Below, one piece after another: positions 4,881-64,000 of a DNA stretch of 64,000 nt; positions within the stretch are counted from its first letter, which is position 1; each line of letters starts with the position of its first letter. A program made the translations under genes and the position numbers. Origin of the DNA: Candidatus Woesearchaeota archaeon (GTDB lineage: Archaea; Nanobdellota; Nanobdellia; Pacearchaeales; GW2011-AR1). The stretch lies in the NCBI GenBank assembly GCA_964366325.1, contig CAYITD010000001.1:119634-183633 (forward strand). Reading direction: 5' to 3'. Below the pieces are notes generated by a model. The model did no database searches. It had not been told where the DNA came from and saw nothing but the letters and a program-made list of their open reading frames with translations.

Positions 4881-4881
4881 T

Positions 4882-7298: not shown

Positions 7299-7407
7299 GT
7301 TTTTTGTTATACGTTTTAGTATTAAAATATAGATAATAGTGAAAAGTATATGTTTTTGTGTTAGGGACACATGGAAAAGATTAAAACCCTGATTTTTTAT
7401 CCACTAC

Positions 7408-8010: not shown

Positions 8011-8564
8011 TAATAAACAAAATTTATCTTGACTATGAAGTGTTAAGTCAGATAGGCAGAGCTTTCAAAAATTCAAATCCAAGAATGATAAAACTAGACA
8101 ATTTGCTTGATTTAAAATTTTATAATGAATTAAGAGAAAAACTTAATTTTTTAAGTTTTGAAAAAACTAAAATTCCTGATAAGTATTCCTTTTCAGAATT
8201 TAAAATTAATAATGAGATTGACATTGAAGAACTTGGAGATTTTATTAATAAAATAACAGAAAAGAAAAATAAAATAAAAATAAAATTAAGAAAATATTCT
8301 TGGAAAGATTATAAATTAATTCACGATTCTGAGAATTTCTCAGGTATAAAATTTTGCATTTTTATTCTTTCTGAGGAATCATGGGACTCAAACAATGGAG
8401 GATCTTTCGTTTTCAGAAGCAAGGAAGATTATGTTTTCTCTCCATTTAGCAACTCATTTTTTATTATTGAAAAAAAGAAAGATATGCAGGACTTTGTTCA
8501 GTATGTAAACAACAAAGCCGGAAACAAATGCTTTTATGTTATTGAGGGAACTGTCTTTTCATGA
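7998..8564 (+). CDS. Second, degenerate DSBH domain; probably C-terminal half of the same Tpa1-like gene (frameshift or split)
   Basis: LIHDSE...NGGSFVF resembles DSBH but lacks distal His; ORF has no ATG start (TTG at 7998), overlaps upstream ORF by 13 nt. Confidence 0.45.
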   Translation: MVPLIINKIYLDYEVLSQIGRAFKNSNPRMIKLDNLLDLKFYNELREKLNFLSFEKTKIPDKYSFSEFKINNEIDIEELGDFINKITEKKNKIKIKLRKYSWKDYKLIHDSENFSGIKFCIFILSEESWDSNNGGSFVFRSKEDYVFSPFSNSFFIIEKKKDMQDFVQYVNNKAGNKCFYVIEGTVFS

Positions 8565-9034
8565 AAGTAAAACACACATGTTTCGCTGGAATTTCTCAAG
8601 AAAGGATTGATGCAATAAAGGGCTACAATACTAGAGACCTAACTTCGCAGAGATTTTCAGACCCAAAGTCTTGGGTAGAGCTTGCAGATGTTATGACTTA
8701 CCATCCGCATCCTGTGACGCGTCATGAAGCTTGCTTTTTAGCTGCCGAGTTGCAAATACCTTACGTGCACAGGTTAGTAGCCGTAGTTAAGTTTGATGTA
8801 AGCATTGTAAACAAACATGAAGCTGCCGAGTCTCTTGGTAAAGTAATGGACAGAGATGATGCTTGGATGAGTTATGTATTTTTAAGCAAAACAACAAAGA
8901 AAAATAGAAAAAATTTCAGATATGATTCTAAAGTTTATCACCCAGACGTTCAAGCAACTATTTTAGAATCAATAACAGAATTAGAGGAACGTTTTCCTGA
9001 TTTCAAAAATAGAACTATTTCAAATGCTTTTTAG
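8561..9034 (+). CDS. Hypothetical protein
   Basis: 157-aa ORF, no recognisable motif; translationally coupled to upstream oxygenase ORFs. Confidence 0.35.
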   Translation: MKVKHTCFAGISQERIDAIKGYNTRDLTSQRFSDPKSWVELADVMTYHPHPVTRHEACFLAAELQIPYVHRLVAVVKFDVSIVNKHEAAESLGKVMDRDDAWMSYVFLSKTTKKNRKNFRYDSKVYHPDVQATILESITELEERFPDFKNRTISNAF

Positions 9035-9084
9035 ATCAATTATTTAGAAAGTTTTAAATGGCTTGCTTTTCTCTTTATTTTTTG

Positions 9085-9762
9085 ATGAAGAAAATAGTGA
9101 TCTCTTTAGGAGGTTCGTTAATTTGCCCCAAAGAAATAGATGTTAATTTTATCAATAATTTCAAAGAATTATTAGAATCTTATTCTAAAGAAAAAATTTT
9201 ATTTGTTGTTGTTTGCGGTGGAGGTTATATTGCAAGAAGTTATCAAGAGTCAGCAAATATAATTACTAAATTGGACAGCGAAAATAAGGACTGGTTAGGG
9301 ATCCAAGCTACCAAAATTAATGCTTTGCTCATAAAATCTGTATTTAAAGAAGAATTGGTTCATGGAGAAGTCATAGAAGATCCAACTTTAAAAATTGAAA
9401 CAGATAAGCAAATAATAATCTGTTCTGGCTGGAAGCCAGGATGGAGTACAGATTATGTAGCGGTAAAAATGGCTTTGAACTTTAAAGCTGATAAAATAAT
9501 AAACCTGAGCAACATTGACTATGTTTACAGTGCCGACCCTAAAAAGAATTCAAAGACTATAAAATATAAGAAATTAAATTGGAAAGCGTATCTAAGTCTA
9601 ATAGATAACAAGTGGAGTCCAGGAATGAATTCACCATTTGATCCTATAGCCTCGCAATTAGCGGAAAAAGAAAAATTAGAAGTAAATATAATTGGGAAAG
9701 ATCTGGAAAATTTAAAGAATTTAATTAACGGAAATAATTTTGAAGGAACTATAATAGGTTAG
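9085..9762 (+). CDS. Amino acid kinase family protein (UMP kinase-like)
   Basis: MKKIVISLGGS...VVVCGGG glycine-rich motifs of aspartate/glutamate/uridylate kinase fold; ~225 aa like archaeal PyrH. Confidence 0.7.
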   Translation: MKKIVISLGGSLICPKEIDVNFINNFKELLESYSKEKILFVVVCGGGYIARSYQESANIITKLDSENKDWLGIQATKINALLIKSVFKEELVHGEVIEDPTLKIETDKQIIICSGWKPGWSTDYVAVKMALNFKADKIINLSNIDYVYSADPKKNSKTIKYKKLNWKAYLSLIDNKWSPGMNSPFDPIASQLAEKEKLEVNIIGKDLENLKNLINGNNFEGTIIG

Positions 9763-9767
9763 TCAAT

Positions 9768-10097
9768 TCAACCTTTCTTCACAACCGCAGCCGTTCCATA
9801 ACAAATAACTTCGGTTATTCCAGAAGCAATTTCCGTTGCATCATATCTAACGCCGACAATTGCATTAGCCCCTAGTTCTTCCGCATGAGCCATCATCATA
9901 CTAAATGATTCTTTTCTCGCTTGTTCACAAAGTTCCGTATAGAGTGTGATATTTCCTCCAAATAGAGACTGAATTCCAGCTCCAATGTTTCCTATTATAG
10001 AACGAGATCTAACAATAATTCCTCTGACAACGCCAAGGCTTTTTGTTATTTTGTATCCCTCCAATTGAAAAGTAGTTGAAGTCATTTCTAGTTTCAT
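9768..10097 (-). CDS. UPF0145/YbjQ family protein (DUF74)
   Basis: 109 aa; [27 protein letters not shown]...AIVGVRYD matches YbjQ-like fold. Confidence 0.8.
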
Positions 10098-10121
10098 ATC
10101 TGATTAAAAAAGAGGTTTTAT

Positions 10122-10454
10122 TTAAATCTTCTTGATAGTTGGCTTTCTCAACAGATTTTTCATTTCTTCATCTATTAGAGGTTTTATTTTTTCTTTTGAA
10201 ACATCAATATCGGTGTATTTGTTTTTGAATTTATTCTCAATTTTGTTTTCTATTTCTTTTTTTAATAAATGGACATCTTCATAGTTCCAATTATATAGGC
10301 TACTTTTCTTTATGGCTTGTGATCTATATTCAATCTCTTCAAATTCTAAATGATTTATTGATTCTGGTTTTGAAGTTTTACTTACTAAAATCTTATGAAC
10401 AATAGTATTTGCAATAAGCTTGCTTAAAGAGTCTATAGTTTTATTTTTTCCCAT
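10122..10454 (-). CDS. Hypothetical protein
   Basis: 110-aa Lys/Glu-rich ORF downstream of nucleotidyltransferase gene. Confidence 0.3.
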   Translation of the reverse strand: MGKNKTIDSLSKLIANTIVHKILVSKTSKPESINHLEFEEIEYRSQAIKKSSLYNWNYEDVHLLKKEIENKIENKFKNKYTDIDVSKEKIKPLIDEEMKNLLRKPTIKKI

Positions 10455-11260
10455 TTTGCCTCTTTTATCTCTTGTTCGGTTTCTTTTAGAGATATTATTA
10501 AATAGTCTAAGGCTATTTTTCTCTCTGGTAAAGAAGCAGTGTTGCTTACTAATTTTGAAATTAAATATCTTCCAAGTTCTTTAGTTAATTCTGAAGAGAG
10601 CTTATAGTTATCAATAACTCCTCGCATTAGTAATTTTACAAGCCACAGATTTCTTATACATTCATAGATTTCTTTTCCATTGTTGATAATTAGAGGATCG
10701 CTCCAGTCCAATTTCATAAGTAGATCCAATTTTGAGAGCTCTATTTTTTTAGGAATTTTGGTATTGCCGTATATAATCTTATGATCCTTCAATTGGTAGA
10801 TTAATGATGGATTCTTTGAGTATGACTCTAAAAATATCTTTTTTGAAATTACTTGAATATCTAAATTTAATCCTGATCTTTTAGCTTTCTCTTCTAAATT
10901 AATTATACTATCTCTTCTCTCTTGAATTTCAGAAGATATTGCTTTTTTTGTTATAATAATAACATCAATATCTTTGTATTCTTTATAACTAGTTTGTATA
11001 GCTGAGCCGATTAATATTATCGATTCTATATTTTTTATATTTGAGAGAATAATATTTTTTATTTTATTTTCTATTGCTATATGTTGCGGATTGTAAGAGA
11101 GTCTCTTTAATAGATATTCTGCATTAATGTTTGCAATTTGCTTAAGCTTTGGCCTGATTGCCCTAGTCAAAATATTTGAGTCTAGTTGAGTAATTCTTCT
11201 ATTCTTGAGTTTTTTTTCTATAACTTCTATTTCTCTCTTTGTTAAGATTGGACTTTCCAT
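10433..11260 (-). CDS. Nucleotidyltransferase (Pol beta superfamily) domain protein
   Basis: ILIGSAIQTSYKEYKDIDVIII fits hG[GS]x9-13DhD minimal NTase motif. Confidence 0.55.
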   Translation of the reverse strand: MESPILTKREIEVIEKKLKNRRITQLDSNILTRAIRPKLKQIANINAEYLLKRLSYNPQHIAIENKIKNIILSNIKNIESIILIGSAIQTSYKEYKDIDVIIITKKAISSEIQERRDSIINLEEKAKRSGLNLDIQVISKKIFLESYSKNPSLIYQLKDHKIIYGNTKIPKKIELSKLDLLMKLDWSDPLIINNGKEIYECIRNLWLVKLLMRGVIDNYKLSSELTKELGRYLISKLVSNTASLPERKIALDYLIISLKETEQEIKEAKWEKIKL

Positions 11261-11367
11261 ATAACCCTTTAAAGGATTAAGTATATAAATCTGCTGGATT
11301 GAATAATTTTCTTTTCCAAAAAATTCATTATAGCATAAGTATATAACTAAGTGAAATAGATAATACT

Positions 11368-11634
11368 ATGGAGTTAACACAAAAGGAAGTTAAATTTCTC
11401 ACTATGATGGATGAAACTCGATTATCTAATAAAAAAATGTTCAAAAGAGACTCAGAAGGATTTAGGAAATTATTTTCATTCACAGACAAGGAAATGAATG
11501 TTGCTGTAAAAAAGTTGGTAAAGAAAGGTTTCCTAAGTGAAATGGATCTTGGCTCAAATGAAGTAGTTTACTTTCACACAGACAAGGTTTCTAAAGGTAT
11601 TTTGGATACAAAGTTAAGCTCTGCTAGGCATTAA
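11368..11634 (+). CDS. Hypothetical small protein, possible winged-helix
   Basis: 88 aa; AVKKLVKKGFL resembles wHTH recognition helix region; weak. Confidence 0.3.
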   Translation: MELTQKEVKFLTMMDETRLSNKKMFKRDSEGFRKLFSFTDKEMNVAVKKLVKKGFLSEMDLGSNEVVYFHTDKVSKGILDTKLSSARH

Positions 11635-11940
11635 TTATGTTAATTTTTCATAGACATTTTTTCTTTTAGTCTCTTCAAATTTATAGTTATTCTTTTTTTG
11701 CACACTGAACAACTTCCTAGAATATAAAATACATTTTCATGATCAACAATAATTTTTCTTTTAATCTCGCAATTGTTACAATTAAAGTTTATGTTTTTCA
11801 TAGTTATTTAAAGATTAAAATAGGGTTGCTAAAATAGTCTACCCCTAGAGAAGAAAACCTGCTATATAGACCTATGCTATTTCACCAAACTTTTCATATG
11901 TTTAAAAACCTTTAAAACCCTTAATTCTTAATCAATTTTA

Positions 11941-12023
11941 GCCCGGATGGCGCAGTGGTTACCGCGTAAGTTTGGAGAACTTATTTCCGCAAGGATTCGC
12001 AGGTTCAAATCCTGCTCCGGGCG
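11941..12023 (+). tRNA. tRNA-Ser (anticodon GGA), class II with long variable arm
   Basis: 7-bp acceptor GCCCGGA/TCCGGGC, D-loop AGTGGTTA, anticodon stem TAAGT/ACTTA with loop TTGGAGA, T-arm GCAGG-TTCAAAT-CCTGC, discriminator G; followed by TTTTTTGTTTTT; TATA-like tttaaaac ~27 nt upstream. Confidence 0.8.
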
Positions 12024-12096
12024 TTTTTTGTTTTTAGATTATGTACCTTAAACTCACTATAATAATACTTAAATAATCTGAAACTTAGAAAAAATC

Positions 12097-12396
12097 ATGA
12101 CGATAAACATCGAAGATGTAAATATTGAAATAGAAGGAAGAAGCAATGATTCTCCTCTAGAAGTAACTTTGTTTGAAGGAATTTTACCCAATCTTAGGTC
12201 TTCTTCTTACCCTTGTGCTTATGCGCAAGGTAAAGCGTCAGATAATCCAGGAATTACTGTTGTTGGCTATCCATATGAGAGAAATGGAAAATATCTTAGC
12301 ATGACTTCTGATAAAATTACTCAAGGTGAAACAACTAAATTAAGCGGGTGGCGTTTATACAATGGATCTATTCACAGCATTAGAAAATTAAGTTAA
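12097..12396 (+). CDS. Hypothetical protein
   Basis: 99-aa ORF after tRNA-Ser. Confidence 0.3.
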   Translation: MTINIEDVNIEIEGRSNDSPLEVTLFEGILPNLRSSSYPCAYAQGKASDNPGITVVGYPYERNGKYLSMTSDKITQGETTKLSGWRLYNGSIHSIRKLS

Positions 12397-12404
12397 ACAG
12401 CAAA

Positions 12405-13094
12405 CTAACCTTCAATCACAGTACCTTTAAAATTTTCGCCTCTAAGGATTCCATCAAGATTTTTCATATCTCTTCCAATTATATAAGTCTTAATTTTATA
12501 CTTTCTTATAATCTCAGAAGCACTTTGATCTAAAACAAAATGCTGCCCAGCTTTGAATTTTATTCTTAAAGCTCTCTTTTCAAAATCTTTCCAAGGAATA
12601 TAAGGTATGAATTTTGCATTCTTATTAATTTCAGGATTTGAACTGTATAATCCATCCGTCTTAGTTATATTAATAAATTCTCCTTTAAGAAATTTGGCAA
12701 GCTTTGCAGCCGTTCCATCTGAAGTTGATTTTTCTGCATATCTCAAAGCACCACAAACTACAACCTTATTTTTCCAGAGATTATGTTTTACTTCTTCCAT
12801 ATCTAAAGGTAGTTTACCATTAGCCTCTTTGCCAAAAACTTTCATGATAAATTGAGCATTCGTTCTAGTGGCCATTATACCTGCCAAAGAGAGTTCCTTT
12901 TTCGATTTACCCTCTTTTTCCAATATAGAGATATATTTCCGAGCAAGGCTCCCGCCACCACAAACTACAACAAATTTATATTTTTTAGAGTGTTTTCTTA
13001 GTATTTTAATAAAATCATCCAGAAGTTTATAATTTGGTTTTCCATCAGGGATAATAACACTTCCTCCAAGACTTATCACCATTACATCTTTCAT
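12405..13094 (-). CDS. Amino acid kinase family protein (UMP kinase-like), paralog of 9085-9762
   Basis: MKDVMVISLGGS...VVVCGGGSLAR; same fold/motifs as the other copy. Confidence 0.7.
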   Translation of the reverse strand: MKDVMVISLGGSVIIPDGKPNYKLLDDFIKILRKHSKKYKFVVVCGGGSLARKYISILEKEGKSKKELSLAGIMATRTNAQFIMKVFGKEANGKLPLDMEEVKHNLWKNKVVVCGALRYAEKSTSDGTAAKLAKFLKGEFINITKTDGLYSSNPEINKNAKFIPYIPWKDFEKRALRIKFKAGQHFVLDQSASEIIRKYKIKTYIIGRDMKNLDGILRGENFKGTVIEG

Positions 13095-55234: not shown

Positions 55235-58210
55235 ATGACTAAAATGAATAAAGAAGCACAAAAAATAGATTTCAAAAAAATAGAAAAGAAATGGCAGAAA
55301 GTCTGGGCAGATAATGAAGTTTTTGAAGCTAAAGAAATAGAAAAAAAGAAGAAATTTTACATTTTAGAAATGTTTCCGTATCCTTCTTCTTCAGGGTTGC
55401 ATATGGGTCACGCACTCAATTATACAATCGGGGATATATTTGCGAGATATAAAAAAATGCAAGGTTTTAATATTCTTCACCCAATGGGTTTCGATTCATT
55501 TGGTCTTCCTGCAGAGAATGCTGCTATCAAAGCTAAATCTCACCCAAAAAAGTTCACAGAAGAAGCTATAAAAAATTATATAAAACAGATGAAAAATTTA
55601 GGCATAAGTTACGATTGGTCAAGAGAAATAGAAACTCACAAACCTGAATATTATAAGTGGGATCAATGGATCTTCTTAAAAATGTTTGAAAAAGGTTTAG
55701 TCTATAAAAAAAAGTCTCCAGTAAACTGGTGTCCTGAATGTAATACAGTTTTAGCAAATGAACAAGTTCAGGGTGGAAAATGTTGGAGGCACGAAGAGAC
55801 AAATGTTGAAATAAAGCATCTTGAACAATGGTACTTAAAAATCACGGAATATGCAGAGGAACTATATGACTCTCTTAACAAATTAACAGACTGGCCTGAA
55901 ACAATAAAGACACTTCAGAGAAATTGGATATCAAAAAGTGAAGGGACAGAAGTTGTTTTCAAAATAAATAACGAAAATTGGAAAATATTTACAACGCGCC
56001 CAGATACTTTATTCGGAGTAACTTTTCTCGTTGTCTCAGCACAACATGCAAGACTTATGGATTTTGTATCAAAGGAAAAAAAGCTAGAAGTGGAAAAATT
56101 TGTTAGGAAACTAAATTCCGTTAAAGAAGAAGATATAGAAAAGTTGAACAAAGAAGGAGTTTTTACAGGAAGTTATGCAGAGCATCCATTGACAAAAGAA
56201 AAAATTCCTGTTTGGGTAGGTAATTTTGTAGTTGCTGATTATGGTTCTGGAATAGTTATGGCTGTGCCTGCACACGATCAAAGAGACTTTGAATTTGCGA
56301 AGAAGTACGGTTTGCAAATTAACCCAGTAATGTCTTCAGAAGAAGAAAAAAACGGCGCACAAGATCTTCTCGAGTCAGAATTTAAGAAATTTGTAGAAAA
56401 GGCGAAAAAAGAAAAAAAAGAATTTATCCTAAGCGGAGGTTTTAGCATTCGCATTTTGAGAGGCGTGCGTTATAGAAATCACAAGGATATAGATATATTA
56501 ATTCCAAAGAAAGATTTTGCTTTTTGGAAAAATTATTTTACAAATAATGGGTACGAAGACTGGAGAGAACCAGGAGATAATAAAAGAGACTACTCAAATT
56601 ATGCACTTTATACAAAAGAGATAAACGGATTTGATATCGAGTTTGATATATTTACAATAGAAAAAGATGAACATGGCTACTTTGACAGAGAGTGGGGAAA
56701 GAAAAGGTATTGGAATATTAATTTTGAGGATATAACCTCTTTTGATTATAATGGCGCAGAAATTAAACTTTCAACAAAATTAACTTCCTTTAGAGATGTT
56801 CCTGAAAATAGAAACAAGAAGAAATTAGCTTTAGATTCTTGCTTTGCTTTAGAGAAAGCTTATGAAGGCACAGGAATTCTAATGAATTCAGAAGCTTTCT
56901 CAGATCTTTTCAGCTCAGAAGCTAAAGAACATATAACAAAGGCCTTAGAGGAGAAAAAATTAGGCAATCATGCAACAAACTTCAAATTGAGAGACTGGTT
57001 AATTTCAAGACAGAGATTCTGGGGTACACCTATTCCTATAATTAATTGCAGTGTCTGTGGTTCTGTTCCTATATCAGAAGAAGATCTTCCTGTAGTTCTT
57101 CCTGATAAAATAAAATTTGAGAAGGTAAAAAATCCATTGATAGAGTACGGTAAATTTGTAAACACAAATTGTCCTAAGTGTGGCGGAAAAGCAAAGAGAG
57201 AAACAGACACAATGGACACTTTTGTTAATTCCTCATGGTATTATTTAAGATACTGTGATCCGAAAAATAAAAATGAGATATTTGATAAAAGGAAAGTAAG
57301 TTACTGGTGCCCGATTGATCTTTATATCGGTGGAAAAGAACACGCTTGCTTGCATCTAATATACATAAGGTTTTACACGAAATTTCTAAGAGATTTAGGA
57401 TTGCTTAAATTTGACGAACCCGCTTTAAGACTATTTAACCAAGGGTTTCTATTAGGCCCAGATGGGGAAAAAATGAGCAAGTCAAAAGGCAATGTTATTG
57501 TTCCTGAAATAGTTTCAGAAAAATATGGGATTGATACTGCTCGTTTATTCTTAGTCTCTATAGCGAGTCCAGATAAAGACATAATTTGGAGCGAAAATGG
57601 TGTCGAGGGTTCCCTAAAATTTATCAGAAAAATATTTGATTATGCAAAAAACCTTAAAATAGGTAAGACAAGTGAAAAGCTAGAATCAAAAATAAATAAA
57701 ACCATAAAACAAGTAACAGATGATATAGAGTATTTAAAATATAATTTCGCTGTTATCAAATTAAGATCTCTTTTCGAATCTTTAGAAAATGAAATTTCAA
57801 AACAAGATTTTGAAAAGTGCGTAAAACTCCTTTCTCCTATATGCCCGCATATTGCAGAAGAGCTTTGGAGCAAGTTAGGAAATAAAAGTATTTTGTCTTC
57901 GGAGTCTTGGCCTTCTTATGATGGGTCAAAAATAAATGAAAAATTTGAAAAAACAGAAGAACTTACAGAGAAAACAGTTTCAGACATACTAAATATCTTT
58001 AAAATAGTCTCAGAAAGAGAAAATAAAGAAGTAGAAAAAGTTTATCTCTACGTGCTTCCTCACGAACTCGAGAATTATTCTGAAAAAGAAATTTCAATTC
58101 GTATTAATAAACCAGTTAAGATTTTTTCAGTTTCTGATAAAAACAAATATGATCCACAAGGAAAATCCTCAAAGGCTAAGCCAAATAAGCCTGCAATATA
58201 CGTCGAATAA
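55235..58210 (+). CDS. leuS: Leucyl-tRNA synthetase (archaeal type) with an internal nucleotidyltransferase-like insertion
   Basis: 991 aa; PYPSSSGLHMGHA, editing-domain end PAHDQRDFEFAKKYGL, LRDWLISRQRFWGTPIP, KMSKSKGN. Confidence 0.9.
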   Translation: MTKMNKEAQKIDFKKIEKKWQKVWADNEVFEAKEIEKKKKFYILEMFPYPSSSGLHMGHALNYTIGDIFARYKKMQGFNILHPMGFDSFGLPAENAAIKAKSHPKKFTEEAIKNYIKQMKNLGISYDWSREIETHKPEYYKWDQWIFLKMFEKGLVYKKKSPVNWCPECNTVLANEQVQGGKCWRHEETNVEIKHLEQWYLKITEYAEELYDSLNKLTDWPETIKTLQRNWISKSEGTEVVFKINNENWKIFTTRPDTLFGVTFLVVSAQHARLMDFVSKEKKLEVEKFVRKLNSVKEEDIEKLNKEGVFTGSYAEHPLTKEKIPVWVGNFVVADYGSGIVMAVPAHDQRDFEFAKKYGLQINPVMSSEEEKNGAQDLLESEFKKFVEKAKKEKKEFILSGGFSIRILRGVRYRNHKDIDILIPKKDFAFWKNYFTNNGYEDWREPGDNKRDYSNYALYTKEINGFDIEFDIFTIEKDEHGYFDREWGKKRYWNINFEDITSFDYNGAEIKLSTKLTSFRDVPENRNKKKLALDSCFALEKAYEGTGILMNSEAFSDLFSSEAKEHITKALEEKKLGNHATNFKLRDWLISRQRFWGTPIPIINCSVCGSVPISEEDLPVVLPDKIKFEKVKNPLIEYGKFVNTNCPKCGGKAKRETDTMDTFVNSSWYYLRYCDPKNKNEIFDKRKVSYWCPIDLYIGGKEHACLHLIYIRFYTKFLRDLGLLKFDEPALRLFNQGFLLGPDGEKMSKSKGNVIVPEIVSEKYGIDTARLFLVSIASPDKDIIWSENGVEGSLKFIRKIFDYAKNLKIGKTSEKLESKINKTIKQVTDDIEYLKYNFAVIKLRSLFESLENEISKQDFEKCVKLLSPICPHIAEELWSKLGNKSILSSESWPSYDGSKINEKFEKTEELTEKTVSDILNIFKIVSERENKEVEKVYLYVLPHELENYSEKEISIRINKPVKIFSVSDKNKYDPQGKSSKAKPNKPAIYVE

Positions 58211-58337
58211 ATTTATCTGTGTAAAAATGCGGAGAGGACGACTTTCCCTAAAAGTTAAGGTCAGTTACATAATGTAATTTATATAACATTGAAACAGCTT
58301 CTATATTTATATTTTGTCATAAAATAATATATACGTT

Positions 58338-59474
58338 CTATAATTTTTCATAAATTTTATTTTTAGTCTCTTCATCTTTTGTGTTAAATTTTTCTACAAT
58401 ACTATCAATTATATTTTTTCTTATTTTGTAGGTATTAGCCCATTTTGCATATCCAAACCAGCCTTGCAGTTCTTCAATTAATTTGTTTGGGCTTGTTTGT
58501 GTCGGATCATAATTGTCTAGTTTTTCTTTAAACTTTCTTATAAAAATACGTATATTTCTCTTTCTGAGCAGCTTATGATAATAAAAAACTCTATAACCTA
58601 AGAAAGTAACCCCTTTTCTCAATGGAATTATTTTTGATTTATCTGGGTGCAATTCAAGATTTATGTTTTTTAGAAATTCTATGATTTTTATTTTGAAATA
58701 TTCTAATCTTTTTTTGCTTCTGTGTAAAATTACAAAGTCATCAACATATCTTATGTAATATTTAGCTTTAAGTTCATGTTTAACAAAATAATCTAGTTCA
58801 TTAAGGTAAACATTAGCGAAAAACTGAGAAGTGTAATTCCCTAAGGGCATCCCTTTCCCTTTAACTTCAGAGTCAAAATTTTTCAAGATCAATCTTACAA
58901 GCCAAATAAATTTTCCATCTTTTATTTTCTTTCTTAATATAGAAATTAATACTTCATGATCCACACTATCAAAATAATGTTTTATGTCTGCTTTCAAACA
59001 ATATCCTTGAATTGAATCATAATCTCGCACTATAAAGTTGTTCGCCCCCCCCCCCGAACTAGCTGTCTTTAAGATAAGTCCATTTTGAGAGACTTTTCTT
59101 TTAAAATAATCAAATCTCTGTATAGCTGGATGTGTACCTTTATCCTTTCTGCTTGCAAAAAAATCATAAATGAATATTTTTTCAAAAATTGGATCTAAAA
59201 TGTTAATTACTGCGTGATGCACAATTCTATCTCTAAAAGCTGAAGCGTGTATTGTTCTTGTTTTCGGATCTCTAACTATAAATTTTTTGAGAGGTCTAGG
59301 CCTATAATTCATATTTTCAAGATCTGTTTTTAGATTTTCAAGATTTTCCTTAAAATCTTTATCAAATTCAACAACAGACAATTTTTTGCTCTTTCCTTTT
59401 TTTGCTTTTAAATATGCTAAACAGATATTTTCTGAACTGCAAAGTTTTCGATAGACATTTTTGTATCTTTTCAT
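58338..59474 (-). CDS. Diversity-generating retroelement (DGR) reverse transcriptase
   Basis: 378 aa; RT motif 4 as PLGNYTSQFFANVYL (DGR-specific [IV]GxxxSQ instead of group II QGxxxSP), motif 5 YIRYVDDFVIL; cognate TR/VR pair found. Confidence 0.8.
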   Translation of the reverse strand: MKRYKNVYRKLCSSENICLAYLKAKKGKSKKLSVVEFDKDFKENLENLKTDLENMNYRPRPLKKFIVRDPKTRTIHASAFRDRIVHHAVINILDPIFEKIFIYDFFASRKDKGTHPAIQRFDYFKRKVSQNGLILKTASSGGGANNFIVRDYDSIQGYCLKADIKHYFDSVDHEVLISILRKKIKDGKFIWLVRLILKNFDSEVKGKGMPLGNYTSQFFANVYLNELDYFVKHELKAKYYIRYVDDFVILHRSKKRLEYFKIKIIEFLKNINLELHPDKSKIIPLRKGVTFLGYRVFYYHKLLRKRNIRIFIRKFKEKLDNYDPTQTSPNKLIEELQGWFGYAKWANTYKIRKNIIDSIVEKFNTKDEETKNKIYEKL

Positions 59475-59497
59475 ATTATAAGCCTTAGAGGTCAGGT

Positions 59498-59585
59498 TAT
59501 TCCGAGCGACGCATTAGTGTTAGATGGATTCCTATTGCAGTTCAGGTTAGCCCTGTCTGAATTAGCATTGAACCTAGCGACAGTT
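59498..59585 (-). repeat. DGR template repeat (TR)
   Basis: reverse complement aligns base-for-base with 62243-62330; ~18 mismatches, all at TR adenines; lies just upstream of RT on same strand. Confidence 0.8.
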
Positions 59586-59922
59586 GTAGCACAATCATTA
59601 AGTATCACCATAACTTTAGGTTTCACTCCAAACTTCCCCAAGGTTTTTCATAACTACTTGCTATTGTTATTGTATTTTATGGCTTTTAGCGCTATGATTG
59701 TGCGTGTAACCTGTTAAGTTCTGTCTAGGTATAGTAATTCCTTGAATAAGGAATGAATTTGACAGCCCTCTAAGGCATTCTTACCTTGTAAAATTTGTTT
59801 TAAAATATTTATACAATTTACCATATAAGTTATGTTGTAACTCTAAAGTAACTTCAAAAGAAAGATTTAAATACTCAATATTTCTAGGAAAATTGATATA
59901 AAGCAACATAAAACACATAAAA

Positions 59923-60093
59923 ATGACACAAAATCAAGCTAAAAGCTACACAATAACAAAAAGAATAGCAAAGCACGGCAAACAATCAGTCATACTTATT
60001 CCTAAATATCTACAAGAAGAACTAAGGCCTAAAACGATAGTAGAGGTAAGAATAAATATAGTTAAGGAGGCTGAAGAAAATGGCAGAGAATAA
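59923..60093 (+). CDS. Possible small AbrB/SpoVT-like protein
   Basis: 56 aa MTQNQAKSYTITKRIAKHGKQSVILIPKYLQEELRPKTIVEVRI resembles swapped-hairpin AbrB domain; overlaps start of AAA gene; below ORF-track cutoff. Confidence 0.2.
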   Translation: MTQNQAKSYTITKRIAKHGKQSVILIPKYLQEELRPKTIVEVRINIVKEAEENGRE

Positions 60094-61528
60094 AAATTTA
60101 ACAGAACAACAGAAAGTAAGAAAATTATACGACTTAATCGGCGATAGAGGTCTATATGTTAATACTAATTTTGATGTTTTCTCAGAAAAGCCAGAAATGG
60201 TAGCTTTAGCAGGCGGAGCAGGGTACAAAGTTCCTCTTATTCAACCAGGAACAAAAGCATATGCTTCTCCTTTATTGTTTGCATCACTCACTTCTCTTTT
60301 GAATCACGGAACTATGTTAATAACTGGAGCTCCAGGTATTGGTAAAACTACGGGTGCAGAGTTTGCAGGACATTTCTTCACAGGAACTAGTCTTGAAGAA
60401 ATTCTTGCTTCTGAAATCCAAGGTCATCCTCAATTAACTGAAGAAAAGATGGTTGCTTCTTATGATATAGGTAAGCTTGTAAGTACGGGAGAAAGAAAAG
60501 TTATTCCAAATAGATTCTTGAAGTGTGCTGTAAAAATTCTTGATGAAGGAAACAGAACTCCTTCTGATGTATTAAGTATCATGATGAGATTAGCGGATAC
60601 AGGTAAAGCTGTATATGGCGGTGAACTTCTTAAAGCGGAGCAAGGGCCTTTATATGTAACTGCAAATTATGCGGATGAAGGCACCTTCCAATTTACTCCT
60701 CCTTTTCTTGATCGTTTCGATGTTGCAGTTATGGTAACAAGTCCTCCTTCATGGGATTTAAATAAAATTAGAAAACGTGGAGATGAGAAATTAAATGGCG
60801 GTCTCGGTAATGCGGTTAATATTCCTGAAGGTCTTAAGCTTGACTTTGAAAAACTGAGAGCAGAGATTAAAAATATTCCTCAAGATGTAGAGTATGAAGT
60901 TCCGCAAATGAATGCTTTTGCCGACTTTGTTTATAGCTCGCTGAGATTTTCTGAGGCTGCAAGCGCAAACCTTGCCAGAGCTACAAAGGGAAACGCATGG
61001 CAAGTTAATCAAGATAACTCTCCACCAGGGCATTTTAAGGATTCTCCCTTTAATTATACGGTAAATGAATTAAGTGTGAGAACCGCACAAGCAATGCCTC
61101 GATATGCAAAAGCCTTTGCATGGATGAATGGAGACTCTAAAGTAACTCCTGCGCATCTTAAAACCATTCTTCCTTATATGTTATGGCATAAACTTCAGCC
61201 GACTCAAAAAGCAACAGCAGAAAATGCTTTACATGTTAATGATCGTATAGCTTTTGTTGAGGATTTAGTAGCAAGAATAGAAACAGACTATGATGAACTT
61301 CTAGGAAACTCTAAACTTTTACAAACCTATGCTGCTGCTTTGAAGGTTGTTAGAACTCATAAGATAAAAGATAATGATATTACTCCAGATCAAGTTCGTA
61401 GTGTTGTTAAAAATGCAATTACTCAGATAGGTGCTGAAGATAAAGCGTATGCTGTCACTTTGGCCGATCATATATCTTCTGAGTATAATTATAGTTTAAC
61501 AAATGAATATGACGCGCAACAACCTTAG
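60080..61528 (+). CDS. MoxR-family AAA+ ATPase
   Basis: Walker A LITGAPGIGKTTGAE, Walker B ILDEGNRTP, sensor/arginine region; 482 aa. Confidence 0.8.
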   Translation: MAENKNLTEQQKVRKLYDLIGDRGLYVNTNFDVFSEKPEMVALAGGAGYKVPLIQPGTKAYASPLLFASLTSLLNHGTMLITGAPGIGKTTGAEFAGHFFTGTSLEEILASEIQGHPQLTEEKMVASYDIGKLVSTGERKVIPNRFLKCAVKILDEGNRTPSDVLSIMMRLADTGKAVYGGELLKAEQGPLYVTANYADEGTFQFTPPFLDRFDVAVMVTSPPSWDLNKIRKRGDEKLNGGLGNAVNIPEGLKLDFEKLRAEIKNIPQDVEYEVPQMNAFADFVYSSLRFSEAASANLARATKGNAWQVNQDNSPPGHFKDSPFNYTVNELSVRTAQAMPRYAKAFAWMNGDSKVTPAHLKTILPYMLWHKLQPTQKATAENALHVNDRIAFVEDLVARIETDYDELLGNSKLLQTYAAALKVVRTHKIKDNDITPDQVRSVVKNAITQIGAEDKAYAVTLADHISSEYNYSLTNEYDAQQP

Positions 61529-62351
61529 ACCTTTGCTTCCTGTAAACCCACAAGGGTTAGACGATATAGCTTCTGCTTTATTAGATAATGCTCCTCCTAA
61601 GGATGATGAGGAAAATGTTCTTCCTGCAAGTATTAACAACCCAGAGAAACGTATTATTTTACCAACTAGAACTCATGGCCATTATAGTTATCCTGATTTA
61701 GTTGTAGATATGAATAGACTAGCCTACGATGCAACTGTAGAGAAAGCTGCAAAAGAATTGGGAATTAAGGTAAAAAATACGGGTAAAGAACAAAGCGGAC
61801 ATGACTATATTGGAAACATTAATTGGGAAACTGCTCTAAAATTAAATCAAAAATTAGGAAATGTTACTTTAAATCCGCGCCAGTTTATTGATTTAAGAGA
61901 ATTACTTGAAGCAGGGATAGATAAAAGTAAAAAAGTGTATGACGGGAAAGGCAAACCAATTGCTGTAGATATCCTTAAACAAGTCTATAACGAGATTACA
62001 GAAAAACGTGACCCTTGGAGATCTGAGTGGTTGGATGCTCGATTTACATCTAAAGGCAGATCTCTTGAAATTAATTATGACCATAGGTTATCTGGCGGAA
62101 ATCTTACAGCAGGGAAATCAGAAGCTCTAGAAGCTTATGTTGGTGAAAACTCATGGGTTGACGTTACGAGTTTTAATAGACAAGGGCTCCCTAAGAAAAA
62201 ATCAGCAACAGAAAAATTGTATTACTGGTTTCCTGTAGATGGATCTGTCGCTTGGTTCTATGCTGGTTCGGACGGGGCTGGCCTGTACTGCTATGGGGGT
62301 CCATCTGTCACTAATGCGTCGCTCGGGGTACGTGCCGCGCGAAAAAAATAG
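61503..62351 (+). CDS. DGR variable (target) protein with C-terminal CLec/FGE-like fold
   Basis: C-term YYWFPVDGSVAWFYAGSDGAGLYCYGGPSVTNASLGVRAARKK contains VR; Gly/Tyr/Trp-rich VR-encoded tail ending LGVRAAR like DGR targets (cf. LGFRCAR). Confidence 0.75.
   Translation: MNMTRNNLRPLLPVNPQGLDDIASALLDNAPPKDDEENVLPASINNPEKRIILPTRTHGHYSYPDLVVDMNRLAYDATVEKAAKELGIKVKNTGKEQSGHDYIGNINWETALKLNQKLGNVTLNPRQFIDLRELLEAGIDKSKKVYDGKGKPIAVDILKQVYNEITEKRDPWRSEWLDARFTSKGRSLEINYDHRLSGGNLTAGKSEALEAYVGENSWVDVTSFNRQGLPKKKSATEKLYYWFPVDGSVAWFYAGSDGAGLYCYGGPSVTNASLGVRAARKK
62243..62330 (+). repeat. DGR variable repeat (VR)
   Basis: 88 nt matching RC of 59498-59585 with adenine-specific substitutions; followed by GC-rich cgtgccgcgcg (IMH-like) and stop codon 19 nt later. 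Confidence 0.8.
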
Positions 62352-62360
62352 GAGTTTACT

Positions 62361-63983
62361 ATGGCACAAACACTAGACGTTAGAGTTAATGAAGCATGGA
62401 GTGATGCATTAAAGAGTTGGAACTCTCCTTCAGTTCCTTATGTCATTGCTCCTTCCAATCTTAAAGAAGTTAGAGGAATGGGAGAAATTGGAAAAGCTTT
62501 GGAAGGAGAATTCGCTTTTATGAAATATCCTGAATTTCAAACCTATATGAATCTCGAAAGAATTGTACAGAAATTCCCAACTGATCCTCAACGTGCAGCG
62601 AAAGCAATTGCAAAACATGAAGTGGGTCATAGGTTTTGCCCTTATGATATTGTTACGCTCATTACTTTAAATCATGCTATGAGTAAGGCATTGGAAGCTC
62701 AGAAAATTCCTTATGATGCAAAAGCAGCTGCGCAAAATATTATGAATTTATTTACTGATACTTGCATTAACACTCGTCTTGTTCAGAAGGGAGACGAAGA
62801 CATTTCTTGGGTGTATCAAGGGTTAAGTAAAGAAAAGAAAGGCAGCAAGTTATGGAATGTGTATGGAAGAAGTATGGAACTTATTTGGAAAAGGGATATT
62901 TTGCCGAAAAAGACAAAGTTGAGTGCCGAAGAGAAAACTAGTGCGCAAGATCTAGCAGAATTGTTTACCAGAGATTACTTTAATAGAGATACTTGGAAAG
63001 ATAATGGCATCCGTTATGCTGAAATTATAAGCAAGTTCTTAGAAAATGAAGAACAGGATGGAGATAGTGGGCTTGATAATAGCCTAGGCAATAACTTGCC
63101 TAAAACTATTGATGAAAAAACTGCGCAAGATCTAGCAAAACGTCTGGCTCAAATTGGTAGCGATGGATTGCCACAGAATGCTGAAGGAATGAAAGAATTC
63201 CAGGAAATCATGGCAGGATATGGAAAAGGGGACGCAATACAAGCAAGCATTCAGTTTTATGATATGCTTTCAAAATCTTATGACGTTATGTTTGCGACAA
63301 GACCTTTTGGAAGACCAAGAACAAATCCTTTCCAACCTGTAAAGTGGAATCCTTCAATGGGAACGGAGAGACTTGATGTTGATTATTCAATACATGCAGG
63401 AGGCAAAATTATTCCTGGAGTCAATACTTATGCATGGAACACACGTAAACGAGATGCTTTCGGAGGTCTTGAAGAAGTAGTACCTAATTTAGATATTTAT
63501 TTAGATACTTCAATGAGCATGCCTAATCCTATTCAGCAAATCAGTTTGCCTGTGTTAGCAGGCTTTGTTGTTGCTAAAAAAGCCCACAGAAAGGGAGCAA
63601 ATATTCGTGTAACTAATTTTAGCGGTAAAGGACAATCCGTGACACAAGATAATACGCGCGAATTAAATAAAGTATTTGAGACTCTGGTAGTCCACTATAA
63701 TGGCGGAACAGTGTTTCCAACAGCCACATTAAGTGAGGGGACAGATCCTAGACAAGTTTTAATTATAACTGATACTTTTTTGGGAAATGAAGCTGAAACA
63801 ACAAATGCGGTTAGTAATTTAAGGTCTAGAAATAAAGCTAATAAAGTAACAGTATACGAAATTCACCCAGGGAGTCACGGAAGTTATTTACGTGGAGCTG
63901 GAGCCGAAGTAATTAATGGAACAACTACAGATATATTTAAACGGGTAATAGGTAAAGCCAACGAGGTGTACGCAAATGCATAA
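62361..63983 (+). CDS. DUF2201-type putative metallopeptidase / von Willebrand factor A (VWA) domain protein
   Basis: N-terminal HExxH (AKHEVGHRF); C-terminal MIDAS DxSxS as YLDTSMSM plus downstream T/D residues; classic MoxR partner. Confidence 0.75.
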   Translation: MAQTLDVRVNEAWSDALKSWNSPSVPYVIAPSNLKEVRGMGEIGKALEGEFAFMKYPEFQTYMNLERIVQKFPTDPQRAAKAIAKHEVGHRFCPYDIVTLITLNHAMSKALEAQKIPYDAKAAAQNIMNLFTDTCINTRLVQKGDEDISWVYQGLSKEKKGSKLWNVYGRSMELIWKRDILPKKTKLSAEEKTSAQDLAELFTRDYFNRDTWKDNGIRYAEIISKFLENEEQDGDSGLDNSLGNNLPKTIDEKTAQDLAKRLAQIGSDGLPQNAEGMKEFQEIMAGYGKGDAIQASIQFYDMLSKSYDVMFATRPFGRPRTNPFQPVKWNPSMGTERLDVDYSIHAGGKIIPGVNTYAWNTRKRDAFGGLEEVVPNLDIYLDTSMSMPNPIQQISLPVLAGFVVAKKAHRKGANIRVTNFSGKGQSVTQDNTRELNKVFETLVVHYNGGTVFPTATLSEGTDPRQVLIITDTFLGNEAETTNAVSNLRSRNKANKVTVYEIHPGSHGSYLRGAGAEVINGTTTDIFKRVIGKANEVYANA

Positions 63984-64000
63984 TTCTTTTAGACCCTTAT

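Follow-up and report, generated by a model that had tools for sequence, protein, structure and literature searches.

A Woesearchaeota-like (DPANN) genome harbours a self-contained module of about 8 kb, which combines a DGR, consisting of a reverse transcriptase (RT) and one template repeat (TR), with a five-gene operon. The module belongs to the known DGR-linked MoxR-vWA theme, of which it is a variant. As the best explanation of its function, to which a probability of roughly 0.55 is assigned, we infer that the CLec proteins of the operon are intracellular binders whose ligand state is coupled to an ATP-driven VWA/AAA+ transducer. The window, that is, the whole stretch of DNA analysed, comprises 64,000 nt of Candidatus Woesearchaeota archaeon (GCA_964366325.1, contig CAYITD010000001.1, positions 119,634 to 183,633, forward strand); sequence beyond its end was taken from a near-identical contig (L010), which is 99.94% identical to window positions 59055-64000. 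The features of the module are as follows.

58227..58241, no strand assigned: putative left att site, which repeats the tRNA-Leu 3' end (ATGCGGAGAGGA exact, 14/15 nt match)
58338..59474, minus strand: DGR reverse transcriptase, 378 aa, Pfam RVT_1 1.2e-20
59502..59583, minus strand: template repeat, 28 nt upstream of the RT start
59923..60093, plus strand: small basic ORF, 56 aa, pI 9.7
60080..61528, plus strand: MoxR/chelatase-clade AAA+ ATPase, 482 aa, Walker A GAPGIGKT, Walker B ILDEGNR
61503..62351, plus strand: DGR target 1 (T1), 282 aa, in which an N-terminal tag (RPLLPVNPQGLDDIASALL) and a disordered linker precede a CLec/FGE-fold domain
62245..62326, plus strand: variable repeat VR1, within target 1
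62327..62351, plus strand: 3' flank of the VR (GGGGTACGTGCCGCGCGAAAAAAATAG)
62361..63983, plus strand: HExxH-VWA protein, 540 aa, HEVGH at 86-90, DTSMS at 382-386
63976..64000, plus strand: first 25 nt of DGR target 2 (T2; translation MHNSFRPL), 263 aa in L010
L010 5607-5688, off the window: variable repeat VR2, within target 2

Diversification of two CLec proteins by a single template repeat

The DGR is genuine. Its RT is matched by the PADLOC RT model (3.7e-52) and by the NCBIfam group-II-RT-like model (1.5e-45), and its translation includes LGNYTSQ, which fits the DGR-type [I/L]GxxxSQ motif. The TR contains 23 adenines, mainly within AAY codons, and differs from VR1 at 15 of 82 nt, with all 15 mismatches on TR adenines and 14 at the first or second codon position; the 18 mismatches of VR2 likewise all fall on TR adenines. 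The view of target 1 as a CLec-fold DGR target is supported. When four independent loci are pooled, 111/113 TR/VR mismatches lie on TR adenines, and where TRs of different loci differ at non-A positions, both VRs show the same change (7/7 in L001, 12-13/13 in L003). One and the same TR is the source from which the C-terminal ligand-binding surface of either CLec protein is rewritten. The 25 nt that follow VR1 behave like an IMH, since this flank is the same after VR1 and VR2 and unlike the flank of the TR; a hairpin at the VR 3' flank was not significant (z = -0.76 and -1.74). VR1 is identical across four assemblies from the same site, which thus give no sign of ongoing diversification in this population.

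Operon layout and conservation of the cassette

The five genes are ordered as a small regulator-like ORF, the MoxR-clade AAA+ ATPase, CLec target 1, the HExxH-VWA protein and CLec target 2, with overlaps of 14 nt between the small ORF and the AAA+ gene, of 26 nt between the AAA+ gene and T1 (20 nt if the start is the second ATG, at 61509) and of 8 nt between the VWA gene and T2, and with a gap of 9 nt between T1 and the VWA gene. The ORFs, the Walker A/B, HExxH and MIDAS motifs and the 26-nt overlap described in an earlier note on this DNA are all confirmed, and its interpretation is partly supported. That note had seen one target inserted between the ATPase and its VWA partner; T1 does lie between them, but the unit is not a single-target one, as two CLec genes flank the VWA gene and a small ORF precedes the pair. 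A check of the window end for further cassette genes yielded the second target, which starts at 63976 and continues off the window. The small ORF, which has no Pfam match in the window, is kept at the equivalent position in L001, L003, L004, L010, L012, L017 and L018, while L007 and L008 have RHH_1 proteins in its place (E 7.7e-8 and 5.6e-4, respectively); it is probably a DNA-binding regulator of the operon.

The MoxR-target-VWA arrangement, suspected from this one locus, was looked for in related loci and is present there: the same gene order occurs in 6/6 contexts fetched through target homologues, and the cassette was found in 57/73 metagenome loci, always in the order AAA-T(1-2)-VWA-T(1-2). 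Dozens of DPANN loci have this order, in most cases with an RT close by; among the seven loci that extend for 3.5 kb or more on each side, AAA and VWA genes are present in 5/7 and an RT in 6/7. Each of 15 complete cassettes carries two or three targets, and cassettes elsewhere hold up to three or more CLec genes. The arrangement is thus a conserved cassette, beyond chance, which makes it reasonable to infer that the ATPase/VWA pair and the diversified protein are functionally linked; the co-encoding of the CLec proteins with the AAA+ and VWA proteins suggests that the pair handles the diversified binders.

The ATPase/VWA pair and its bacterial relatives

The placement of the ATPase in the MoxR/chelatase clade is supported by its matches to Pfam AAA_5 (3e-9) and AAA_lid_2 (8.5e-8) and to the PDB sequences of BchI (1g8p) and MoxR (2r44). 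Its partner has a helical N-terminal domain with HEVGH and, at the C-terminus, a VWA domain whose MIDAS site is complete; both motifs are invariant across archaeal and bacterial relatives. The label of DUF2201-like, by contrast, was not confirmed, as the window protein has no Pfam family and DUF2201 was matched by 1/32 relatives, at E = 0.15. Since no fold or family match was detectable for the N-terminal HExxH domain, its putative peptidase activity is suggested by motif invariance.

A search with the VWA protein found 534 genomic relatives, and in nearly all of 70 bacterial loci an AAA homologue is followed by a gap of ~1 kb and then by the VWA gene. The gap holds a middle gene, M (~335 aa), which forms one BLAST cluster for 48/52 and is a separate conserved family without similarity to the CLec targets. 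This three-gene unit, AAA-M-VWA, is widespread and unannotated, with hosts among Halopseudomonas, Massilia, Verrucomicrobiota, Chloroflexota and others. The window AAA+ is 26% identical (E 1e-23 over 408 aa) to the bacterial ATPase, which matches Pfam AAA_3, and the HExxH-VWA protein is 24-28% identical to its bacterial homologue over ~470 aa, with every motif residue invariant. By sequence comparison, both DPANN proteins are homologous to the bacterial members, and the slots around the DPANN VWA gene hold two to three or more CLec proteins in place of M. The window shares with the bacterial triad the layout of AAA, ~1-kb middle gene and VWA, whereas the triad has no RT, TR or second flanking gene of target type and is often followed by a radical SAM gene that is absent from the archaeal islands.

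These relatives bear on two other explanations. Firstly, the pair may be a housekeeping-type activase for cofactor or complex maturation, like NorQ/NorD, CbbQ/CbbO or CoxD/CoxE, with the CLec proteins as variable adaptors or co-transcribed unrelated passengers. This is rather improbable: the DPANN pair belongs to a mobile island that has an integrase but no candidate enzyme client, both M and the radical SAM gene are missing, and target genes with a common cassette-specific tag accompany the pair in dozens of loci. Secondly, the AAA+ and VWA proteins may assist retrohoming, as substitutes for a missing Avd, instead of acting on protein products; no Avd-like gene is recognisable at the locus (ORF list, Pfam), and an RT lies beside the cassette in most long loci. 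However, the pair is kept in about 70 bacterial loci without an RT match and in the archaeal cassettes L008, L017 and L018 without an RT within 5-8 kb, and very little credence is given to this explanation.

Localisation of the CLec proteins

All accessory proteins within one cassette carry a common, cassette-specific N-terminal tag of ~25 aa. Identity over the N-terminal 28 aa is 0.64 within cassettes, versus 0.40 for the core domain, and 0.24 between cassettes, where the core domain reaches 0.28; concerted evolution or gene conversion among paralogues could be another cause of this likeness within a cassette. In the predicted structure, pLDDT is low in the tag region, where a short helix is modelled at residues 16-27.

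The same proteins could be exported as surface adhesins for host-cell attachment, with the AAA+/VWA pair as their maturation or assembly chaperone. DPANN archaea are regarded as episymbionts, a contribution of DGR targets to such relationships has been proposed (PMC5006420, PMC10907252), MoxR-VWA pairs assemble extracellular structures in an archaeal virus according to work cited in PMC7159879, and some tag-bearing proteins, of the L015 and L017 cassettes, have hydrophobic segments. On the other hand, no signal peptide or TM segment was found in the window proteins (the highest 19-residue Kyte-Doolittle scores of AAA, T1, VWA and T2 being 0.53-1.19), the AAA+ and VWA proteins, being soluble and ATP-dependent, are cytoplasmic, and the ~8-kb island has no secretion or pilus genes. 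Export is accordingly considered unlikely. The adhesin model resembles the view of the earlier note and what is usually proposed for DPANN DGR targets. That note had the pair mature, insert or remodel the diversified protein; a functional link is reasonable from the conserved cassette, but insertion, meaning display in the membrane or on the surface, is disfavoured by the lack of hydrophobic segments in all of the proteins.

Composition and mobility

The block at 59.5-64 kb had been described as GC-rich, in keeping with horizontal acquisition. GC is indeed raised at 60080-64000 (37.8% versus a background of 32.5 +/- 1.6%), but stands at background at 59475-60079 (32.6%) and below it in the RT (27.8%). 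The excess is located in GC1 and GC2, while GC3 of the three genes (0.217, 0.272 and 0.256) equals that of the host (0.250 +/- 0.029); it therefore reflects amino-acid composition, and raised GC fails as a sign of recent transfer.

Horizontal acquisition is nevertheless plausible on other grounds, as a split integrase and a tRNA-Leu gene lie downstream of the cassette and, together with the tRNA 3'-end repeat at 58227, bound the island. The repeat, which occurs once in the 64-kb window, 17 nt past the LeuRS stop, has its partner at L010:7137-7151, the 3' end of tRNA-Leu(aag), beyond the window. Such a match arises at a frequency of ~0.008 in mononucleotide shuffles of a 6.5-kb stretch, and the assignment as a left att site is suggestive. 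The repeat spans only 12-15 nt and the integrase is split, which counts against this part of the reading. An independent case, L007, has an integrase, a tRNA-Ser and a 24/26-nt direct repeat that encloses the cassette and RT. The module seems to be mobile as an island that integrates at tRNA genes.

Integrase, tRNA integration and DGR are all common in temperate viruses, and MoxR-VWA has a precedent in an archaeal virus (as mentioned in PMC7159879). The island could thus be a provirus remnant, with a receptor-binding protein as the substrate of the DGR and with MoxR/VWA as the assembly factor for a tail or fibre, like that of Acidianus two-tailed virus. Such an origin is highly improbable, given that the VWA protein and the target family have no relative in 2.9 million IMG/VR contigs and that the islands, of just ~8-12 kb, have no capsid, portal or terminase genes.

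Proposed mechanism

In the preferred reading of intracellular binders, each CLec protein would carry its cassette-specific, acidic amphipathic N-terminal tag on a disordered linker. By analogy with CbbQ/CbbO, NorQ/NorD and RavA/ViaA, the MIDAS site of the VWA protein would capture this tag, after which the AAA+ ring would remodel or release the captured protein; the invariant HExxH domain may cleave either the linker or some other substrate. More speculatively, the CLec proteins are probably intracellular binders with a pre-diversified repertoire, because all parts are without export signals, and their ligand state may be coupled to the ATP-driven, protease-bearing transducer. In its logic, the module would then correspond, in DPANN, to the bacterial 'ternary' conflict systems in which MoxR-vWA is linked to DGRs; the reasoning behind peptide capture by MoxR-vWA, and behind its links to DGRs, has been published (PMC7159879 and PMC10907252). 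PADLOC reported the RT only for the cassette, and since no effector or toxin domain is recognisable in the window cassette, a defence role would be no more than an analogy.

Comparison with known systems

As portrayed by Kaur et al. 2020 (PMC7159879) and Doré et al. 2024 (PMC10907252), the VMAP 'ternary' systems of cyanobacteria and gammaproteobacteria share with the window a MoxR-clade AAA+, a MIDAS vWA, DGR-diversified CLec/FGS and an RT/TR, as well as the proposed logic, by which an ATP-driven thresholding pair is coupled to a variable binder; many of them also include a peptidase. The window, however, has no VMAP protein and is ordered AAA-CLec-VWA-CLec instead of VMAP-MoxR-vWA; its CLec domains are on separate small proteins instead of being fused C-terminally to vWA, its vWA domain is C-terminal to an HExxH domain, its AAA+ N-terminus (zero Trp within residues 1-78) is without the W-rich motifs of VMAP-type MoxR, and its host is a DPANN archaeon instead of a multicellular bacterium. 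Doré et al. 2024 (PMC10907252) stated, for their clade 5F, that CPR/DPANN DGRs are unlinked to conflict-system domains, which would speak against the conflict-system analogy if the window RT belongs to that clade. Characterised MoxR-VWA pairs (CbbQ/CbbO, NorQ/NorD, RavA/ViaA, BchI/BchD) have a fixed enzyme client, whereas the candidates in the window are co-encoded hypervariable binders, and its adaptor, unlike theirs, bears an invariant HExxH motif.

A 2017 study, as summarised in PMC10907252, described, in lineages with ultra-small cells, the coupling of an AAA-type ATPase to a CLec domain that is diversified. Compared with that summary, the ATPase and CLec protein of the window are separate overlapping genes, a split kept in relatives; in addition, the cassette requires a VWA partner, and its targets are several. 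AvpA and other Nanoarchaeota DGR variable proteins, as presented in the portions of Paul et al. 2015 (PMC4372165) and Handa et al. 2016 (PMC5006420) that concern them, resemble those of the window in being DPANN targets of orphan-looking sequence with a CLec fold and a C-terminal VR, and in numbering several per genome.

Operon Architecture and Its Continuation Past the Window End

The block between positions 60080 and 63983, which the earlier note had described as a MoxR ATPase and a VWA protein with a single diversified target between them, belongs to a larger operon. The reading-frame coordinates, the motifs and the 26-nt overlap reported in that note agree with the ORF map, and one target (CLec-1) does lie between the two partners; however, a second CLec gene follows the VWA gene and a small ORF precedes the ATPase. 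The window extends 17 nt past the stop codon of the 540-aa VWA gene, and past this end, where the earlier note had proposed a check for further cassette genes, CLec-2 was found in L010, a near-identical contig from the same groundwater site, which is 99.94% identical to window positions 59055–64000 (three mismatches, all in the reverse transcriptase gene). This fifth gene (P0039) encodes a paralogue of the first target with 39% identity. The features concerned are as follows.

Features of the operon and the adjacent DGR (window positions)
58338–59474, minus strand: reverse transcriptase (Pfam RVT_1, 1.2e-20; LGNYTSQ present)
59502–59583, minus strand (that of the reverse transcriptase): TR, 28 nt upstream of the reverse transcriptase
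59923–60093: small basic ORF of 56 aa, conserved in relatives; 14-nt overlap with the start of the ATPase
60080–61528: AAA+ ATPase of 482 aa (Walker A, GAPGIGKT; Walker B of the DExNR type, ILDEGNR)
61503–62351: CLec-1 target of 282 aa, overlapping the ATPase by 26 nt (20 nt from the second ATG)
62245–62326: VR1, within CLec-1, an 82-nt inverted repeat with TR
62361–63983: HExxH-VWA protein of 540 aa (HEVGH, residues 86–90; DTSMS, residues 382–386)
63976 onward: CLec-2, the fifth gene, 263 aa in L010, with its first eight codons (MHNSFRPL) inside the window

The operon is ordered as small ORF, AAA+, CLec-1, HExxH-VWA and CLec-2, with every junction either overlapping or at most 10 nt apart, and in more distant cassettes an RHH_1 protein occupies the position of the small ORF. 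A frameshifted fusion of the ATPase and the target was ruled out, since the related loci L001 and L003 likewise have two overlapping genes. The anatomy of the unit as described here is held with high confidence.

Template-Directed Diversification of Two Targets

The segments 59502–59583 and 62245–62326 form a textbook DGR TR/VR pair; aligned in register, they differ at 15 positions, all of which fall on TR adenines and 14 of which fall on the first or second codon position of the target. VR2, located at the end of the fifth gene in L010, shows the same pattern: its 82-nt core departs from this TR at 18 sites, every one of them a TR adenine (18/18). Both of the co-transcribed CLec proteins are diversified from this single TR. 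When four independent loci are summed (window/L010, L001, L012 and L003, with one TR and two VRs apiece), 111 of 113 TR/VR mismatches are located at TR adenines. Information flow from TR to VR is further supported by the changes shared at non-A positions, in that the differences between the TRs of separate loci recur in both VRs (7/7 in L001 and 12–13 of 13 in L003); L001 and L012 carry an identical TR with different VRs. The four loci together point to a DGR that works, or worked recently.

The VR sits at the 3' end of the target gene, which encodes a ligand-binding CLec fold, and VR1 and VR2 are each followed by an identical 26-nt flank that is missing from TR and that, by its sequence, behaves as an IMH-like element. 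A hairpin after the VR scored no better than in shuffled sequences, and neither an Avd-like ORF nor a Pfam match to an Avd-type accessory was found between the reverse transcriptase and the target; Avd is not universal among DGRs. VR1 is identical in L009, L010 and L011, the sibling contigs of the window population, and so gives no sign of present-day diversification there. The sole VR difference among these siblings is a 1-nt deletion (GGG to GG) in VR2 of L011 (around 2330–2440), present in one of three assemblies, by which target 2 is frameshifted to 268 aa; this deletion may have been introduced in assembling a heterogeneous VR, or it may be genuine and inactivating.

Identity of the Encoded Proteins

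The ATPase scores above the Pfam cutoffs of both AAA_5 (37.5 bits against 22) and AAA_lid_2 (32.3 bits against 22.7), and its closest solved relatives by sequence, at weak E-values, are the Mg-chelatase BchI and MoxR 2r44; the designation of MoxR-clade AAA+ is therefore fair, and the MoxR assignment of the earlier note stands in this sense. The MoxR-proper model AAA_3 is matched by the bacterial homologue (30.7 bits, cutoff 27) and not by the window ATPase. No Pfam families besides AAA_5, AAA_lid_2 and RVT_1 were found among the cassette proteins. For the target, no relative was retrieved from Pfam, NCBIfam or PDB sequences, and neither the target nor the 540-aa protein gave a match in Pfam, NCBIfam or PADLOC.

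Both proteins are modelled with confidence: the AlphaFold2 model of the target, built from 31 homologues, has a pLDDT of 88.9, and that of the 540-aa protein (pLDDT 85.1) contains a Rossmann-like VWA fold. The N-terminal ~310 residues of the latter are helical in the model, and no match to this region was retrieved. Moreover, a single-sequence search of the PDB with the 540-aa protein returned nothing, and profile searches of the PDB returned chance-level matches. The assignment of this protein as HExxH plus VWA is nonetheless confirmed, because its motif residues are invariant or nearly so across 8 archaeal and 63 bacterial homologues at ~25% identity; these comprise H86, E87, H90, N129, D133, N137 and E173, together with D382, S384, S386, T450 and D471 of the MIDAS (DxSxS...T...D). 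The accompanying term "DUF2201-like" was not confirmed, as the protein had no Pfam match, PF09967 was detected in 1 of 32 relatives at an E-value of 0.15, and PF13203 was detected in none. In the model, HExxH lies in a helix after two short strands, and the resemblance to zincins is marginal (minigluzincin MJ1213 at an E-value of 0.73; Peptidase_M48 in 1 of 32 members), with fold searches dominated by VWA matches.

Conservation of the Cassette and Family Size

The absence of this gene order elsewhere had been named as the finding that would weaken the cassette interpretation; the cassette was instead present in all six contexts fetched via six different target homologues, including the divergent locus L008, in which the ATPase carries GDTGTGKT/DELNR and the VWA protein carries HEVNH/DTSGS. 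When metagenomes were scanned with a profile of the target, 73 distinct loci were obtained, in 57 of which an ATPase and/or VWA gene adjoins the target, and most of the remainder are contigs of 1–2 kb. The gene order in the metagenome loci is invariably AAA-T(1–2)-VWA-T(1–2), where T denotes a target, and the 15 complete cassettes contain either two targets (seven cassettes) or three (eight cassettes). Among the seven loci whose flanks extend 3.5 kb or more in each direction, both partners were found in five and a reverse transcriptase in six. At E ≤ 1e-3 the target family has no fewer than 1275 cluster representatives, of which 519 remain at E ≤ 1e-30, and it occurs almost always inside an AAA+/HExxH-VWA operon.

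Two related loci deserve separate mention. In L021, the targets flanking the VWA gene (7119–7940 and 9800–10591) have the same core domain, with essentially all differences confined to the VR, which suggests that one was recently duplicated from, or converted to, the other and that the two VRs then diversified separately. In L008, five tagged CLec-like paralogues surround the AAA+ and HExxH-VWA genes (3938–12739), and no reverse transcriptase is found in the 16.9-kb locus; its targets may be served by a DGR acting in trans, or a DGR once present in the cassette may have been lost.

A Cassette-Specific N-Terminal Tag

The accessory proteins of any one archaeal cassette all start with the same motif of ~25 aa, composed of a short Pro-rich stretch and an acidic amphipathic helix, followed by a low-complexity linker.

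N-terminal tags by locus
Window, L001, L003: RPLLPVNPxGLD[DE]IAxALL
L004, L007: IPDxFMxKxVEGAxE
L018, L019: [ST]PEER[KA]...LL
L021: ILKGVEYTQAEADEIYNELL

Within cassettes, the mean identity is 0.64 over the first 28 residues versus 0.40 over the core domain, whereas between cassettes the corresponding values are 0.24 and 0.28. In the target model, the tag and linker are predicted with low confidence and contain a single short helix (residues 16–27). A shared, partner-specific tag of this kind is what proteins handled by, or built into, a single machine would be expected to carry; alternatively, the likeness of tags within a cassette could have arisen via concerted evolution among paralogues. 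Tagged short proteins of 148–191 aa without a CLec domain were also observed in L017 (4335–4781 and 6423–6884) and L015 (1906–2481); these possess two Gly-rich hydrophobic segments, with a highest 19-residue Kyte-Doolittle score (KD19) of 1.55–1.94, and could be membrane effectors.

A Bacterial Relative with a Different Middle Protein

With a profile of the VWA protein, 534 relatives were retrieved from genomes; of the 80 loci kept, the majority are bacterial and are distributed over many phyla. In nearly all of the 70 bacterial loci, a homologue of the ATPase (26% identity over 408 aa, E 1e-23) is located upstream of the VWA gene with ~1 kb between them, and this gap encodes a conserved protein of ~335 aa, designated M, which forms one BLAST cluster in 48 of 52 loci. 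The bacterial triad (L022–L091; for example, L022 5436–10294) consists of a MoxR-like AAA+ protein of ~527 aa, M of ~335 aa and an HExxH-VWA protein of ~600 aa, often followed by a radical SAM gene (20/45 bacterial loci), and its hosts include Pseudomonadota, Verrucomicrobiota, Chloroflexota, Spirochaetota and other phyla. M has no Pfam match, and the possibility that it is a diverged target was rejected by hhalign, for which both the single sequence and a 46-sequence profile gave a probability below 1%. As the bacterial homologues of the ATPase and the VWA protein flank M, which is unrelated to the CLec targets, the archaeal cassette looks like an old AAA+/HExxH-VWA pair whose co-encoded partner was replaced by DGR targets. 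Neither Pfam nor NCBIfam nor the source records assign the triad a function, the label in the records being only "VWA domain-containing protein", and no paper on it was found in the literature; the AAA-M-VWA set is thereby brought to light as an uncharacterised conserved unit.

Comparison with Known DGR-Linked Systems

The coupling of a DGR-diversified CLec protein to MoxR and vWA has published precedents in cyanobacteria and purple sulfur bacteria (PMC7159879, section 25; PMC10907252, section 13), and CLec-AAA fusions have been described in CPR by Paul et al. 2017, as summarised in PMC10907252; Roux et al. 2021 leave ATPases and MoxR unmentioned. The VMAP ternary systems (Kaur et al. 2020) possess a VMAP protein, whereas the present cassette has no such gene by size or position and no Pfam match to one, provided that the Pfam copy searched contains the VMAP-C models. 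Those systems follow, according to section 9 of PMC7159879, a strict VMAP-MoxR-vWA order with the effector or FGS fused C-terminally to vWA; in contrast, the genes here run small ORF-AAA-CLec-VWA-CLec, with the VWA domain at the C-terminus of its own protein and the CLec proteins unfused. Furthermore, VMAP-type MoxR proteins carry the N-terminal motifs WxhapG and PsWRxa, whereas residues 1–78 of the present AAA+ protein are without tryptophan. The target, which has no sequence similarity to AvpA, including the motifs GxxVVVYAH, HPxxxPFxG and RFxGV of the AvpA-like CLec subclass, is on these grounds classed as not AvpA-type. The cassette is thus a variant on the known DGR/MoxR-vWA theme, in an arrangement that is probably new. 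The DGR/MoxR-vWA link, known only from multicellular bacteria, now reaches ultra-small archaea, and its proposed tie to multicellularity is accordingly weakened.

Proposed Mechanism

The CLec genes are consistently accompanied by genes for a MoxR-clade ATPase and for an HExxH-VWA protein whose MIDAS and catalytic-looking residues are intact, and all of these products appear soluble; the AAA+ protein, both targets and the VWA protein are without a hydrophobic stretch (KD19 ≤ 1.2), which argues for a cytoplasmic location. Characterised MoxR-VWA pairs provide a model for client capture and remodelling (PMC7159879, section 8). By analogy with these pairs, the MIDAS site of the VWA domain would capture an acidic client peptide, for which the tag is the obvious candidate, and the ATPase ring would then remodel or release the client. 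More speculatively, the HExxH domain, whose peptidase activity is predicted, might cleave the linker or a downstream substrate, and the module might serve as an intracellular recognition device along the lines of the bacterial MoxR-vWA ternary systems that are linked to DGRs. A probability of roughly 55% is given to the combined explanation, by which the AAA+/VWA pair would act on tagged CLec proteins inside the cell; the contact between tag and MIDAS, and likewise a role in defence, are each considered less probable than this.

A broader proposal, namely a mobile DGR-programmed intracellular recognition system in DPANN that would convert ligand binding into an ATP-gated proteolytic or remodelling output, and that would be derived from the bacterial AAA-M-VWA(-radical SAM) unit by client replacement, is put forward as a long shot. 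Under this proposal, two to three hypervariable CLec sensors would dock by the cassette tag to the HExxH-VWA adaptor/protease and the MoxR-type ATPase; if true, it would amount to an anticipatory immune-like device in tiny-genome organisms. The DGR targets of DPANN and CPR are numerous and are usually discussed as possible surface adhesins. The present target family, with two to three members per cassette, a private tag, no export signals and tRNA-integrating islands, points to a chaperone- or protease-coupled intracellular machine, and DPANN DGR targets that form a large orphan family gain a concrete and testable molecular context.

Mobility and Base Composition

In L010, CLec-2 is followed in order by a split integrase, tRNA-Leu(aag), and host ribosomal and RNA-polymerase genes.

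Integrase past the window end
L010 5878–6901 (~1.9–2.9 kb past the window end), minus strand: split tyrosine recombinase, ORFs of 208 aa and 121 aa

The 208-aa ORF covers positions 5–138 of the 172 in the Phage_integrase model, and the 121-aa ORF begins with MASVYVHLSGRD, probably the part of the recombinase around the catalytic Tyr, and has a zinc ribbon at its end; because the recombinase is split into two ORFs, the island may be immobilised. The last 12 nt of tRNA-Leu recur exactly (14/15 when extended) once in the window, at 58227, with a shuffle frequency of ~0.008, and this repeat is located 17 nt past the LeuRS stop, just outside the reverse transcriptase. With an exact repeat of only 12 nt and a split integrase, the window case is a putative island of roughly 8 kb bounded by this repeat. 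A clearer case is L007, where an intact 398-aa integrase, tRNA-Ser and a 24/26-nt direct repeat around cassette, reverse transcriptase and integrase (~11.7 kb) mark a tRNA-integrating island. The LeuRS itself (991 aa, window 55235–58210, plus strand) contains an extra segment after the editing domain (~residues 387–489) that is unusual for LeuRS and has weak nucleotidyltransferase matches (Pfam Aminoglyc_resit, 1.7e-5; NTP_transf_5, 7.6e-4).

The horizontal acquisition suggested earlier from a GC-rich block at 59.5–64 kb is plausible from the integrase and the tRNA repeat, but not on grounds of GC. The GC content of 60080–64000 (37.8%) is indeed above that of every background window (32.5 ± 1.6%, maximum 36.4%), but the spacer between TR and operon is at background, and the reverse transcriptase gene has a GC content of 27.8%. 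Since the excess lies in GC1 and GC2, with GC3 values of the three genes (0.217, 0.272 and 0.256) at the host mean of 0.250 ± 0.029, the raised GC reflects amino-acid composition, and codon usage was ruled out as evidence of transfer. A viral origin was likewise set aside, as the VWA and target profiles found no relative in IMG/VR. Two related cassettes, in L003 and L004, are located a few kb from TraC-like/DUF87/TraG-type ATPase genes (regions L003 1–631 and L004 937–4003), with AbiEii and an integrase nearby in L003 and a type I restriction-modification operon nearby in L004, and are therefore placed in mobile or defence-rich neighbourhoods.
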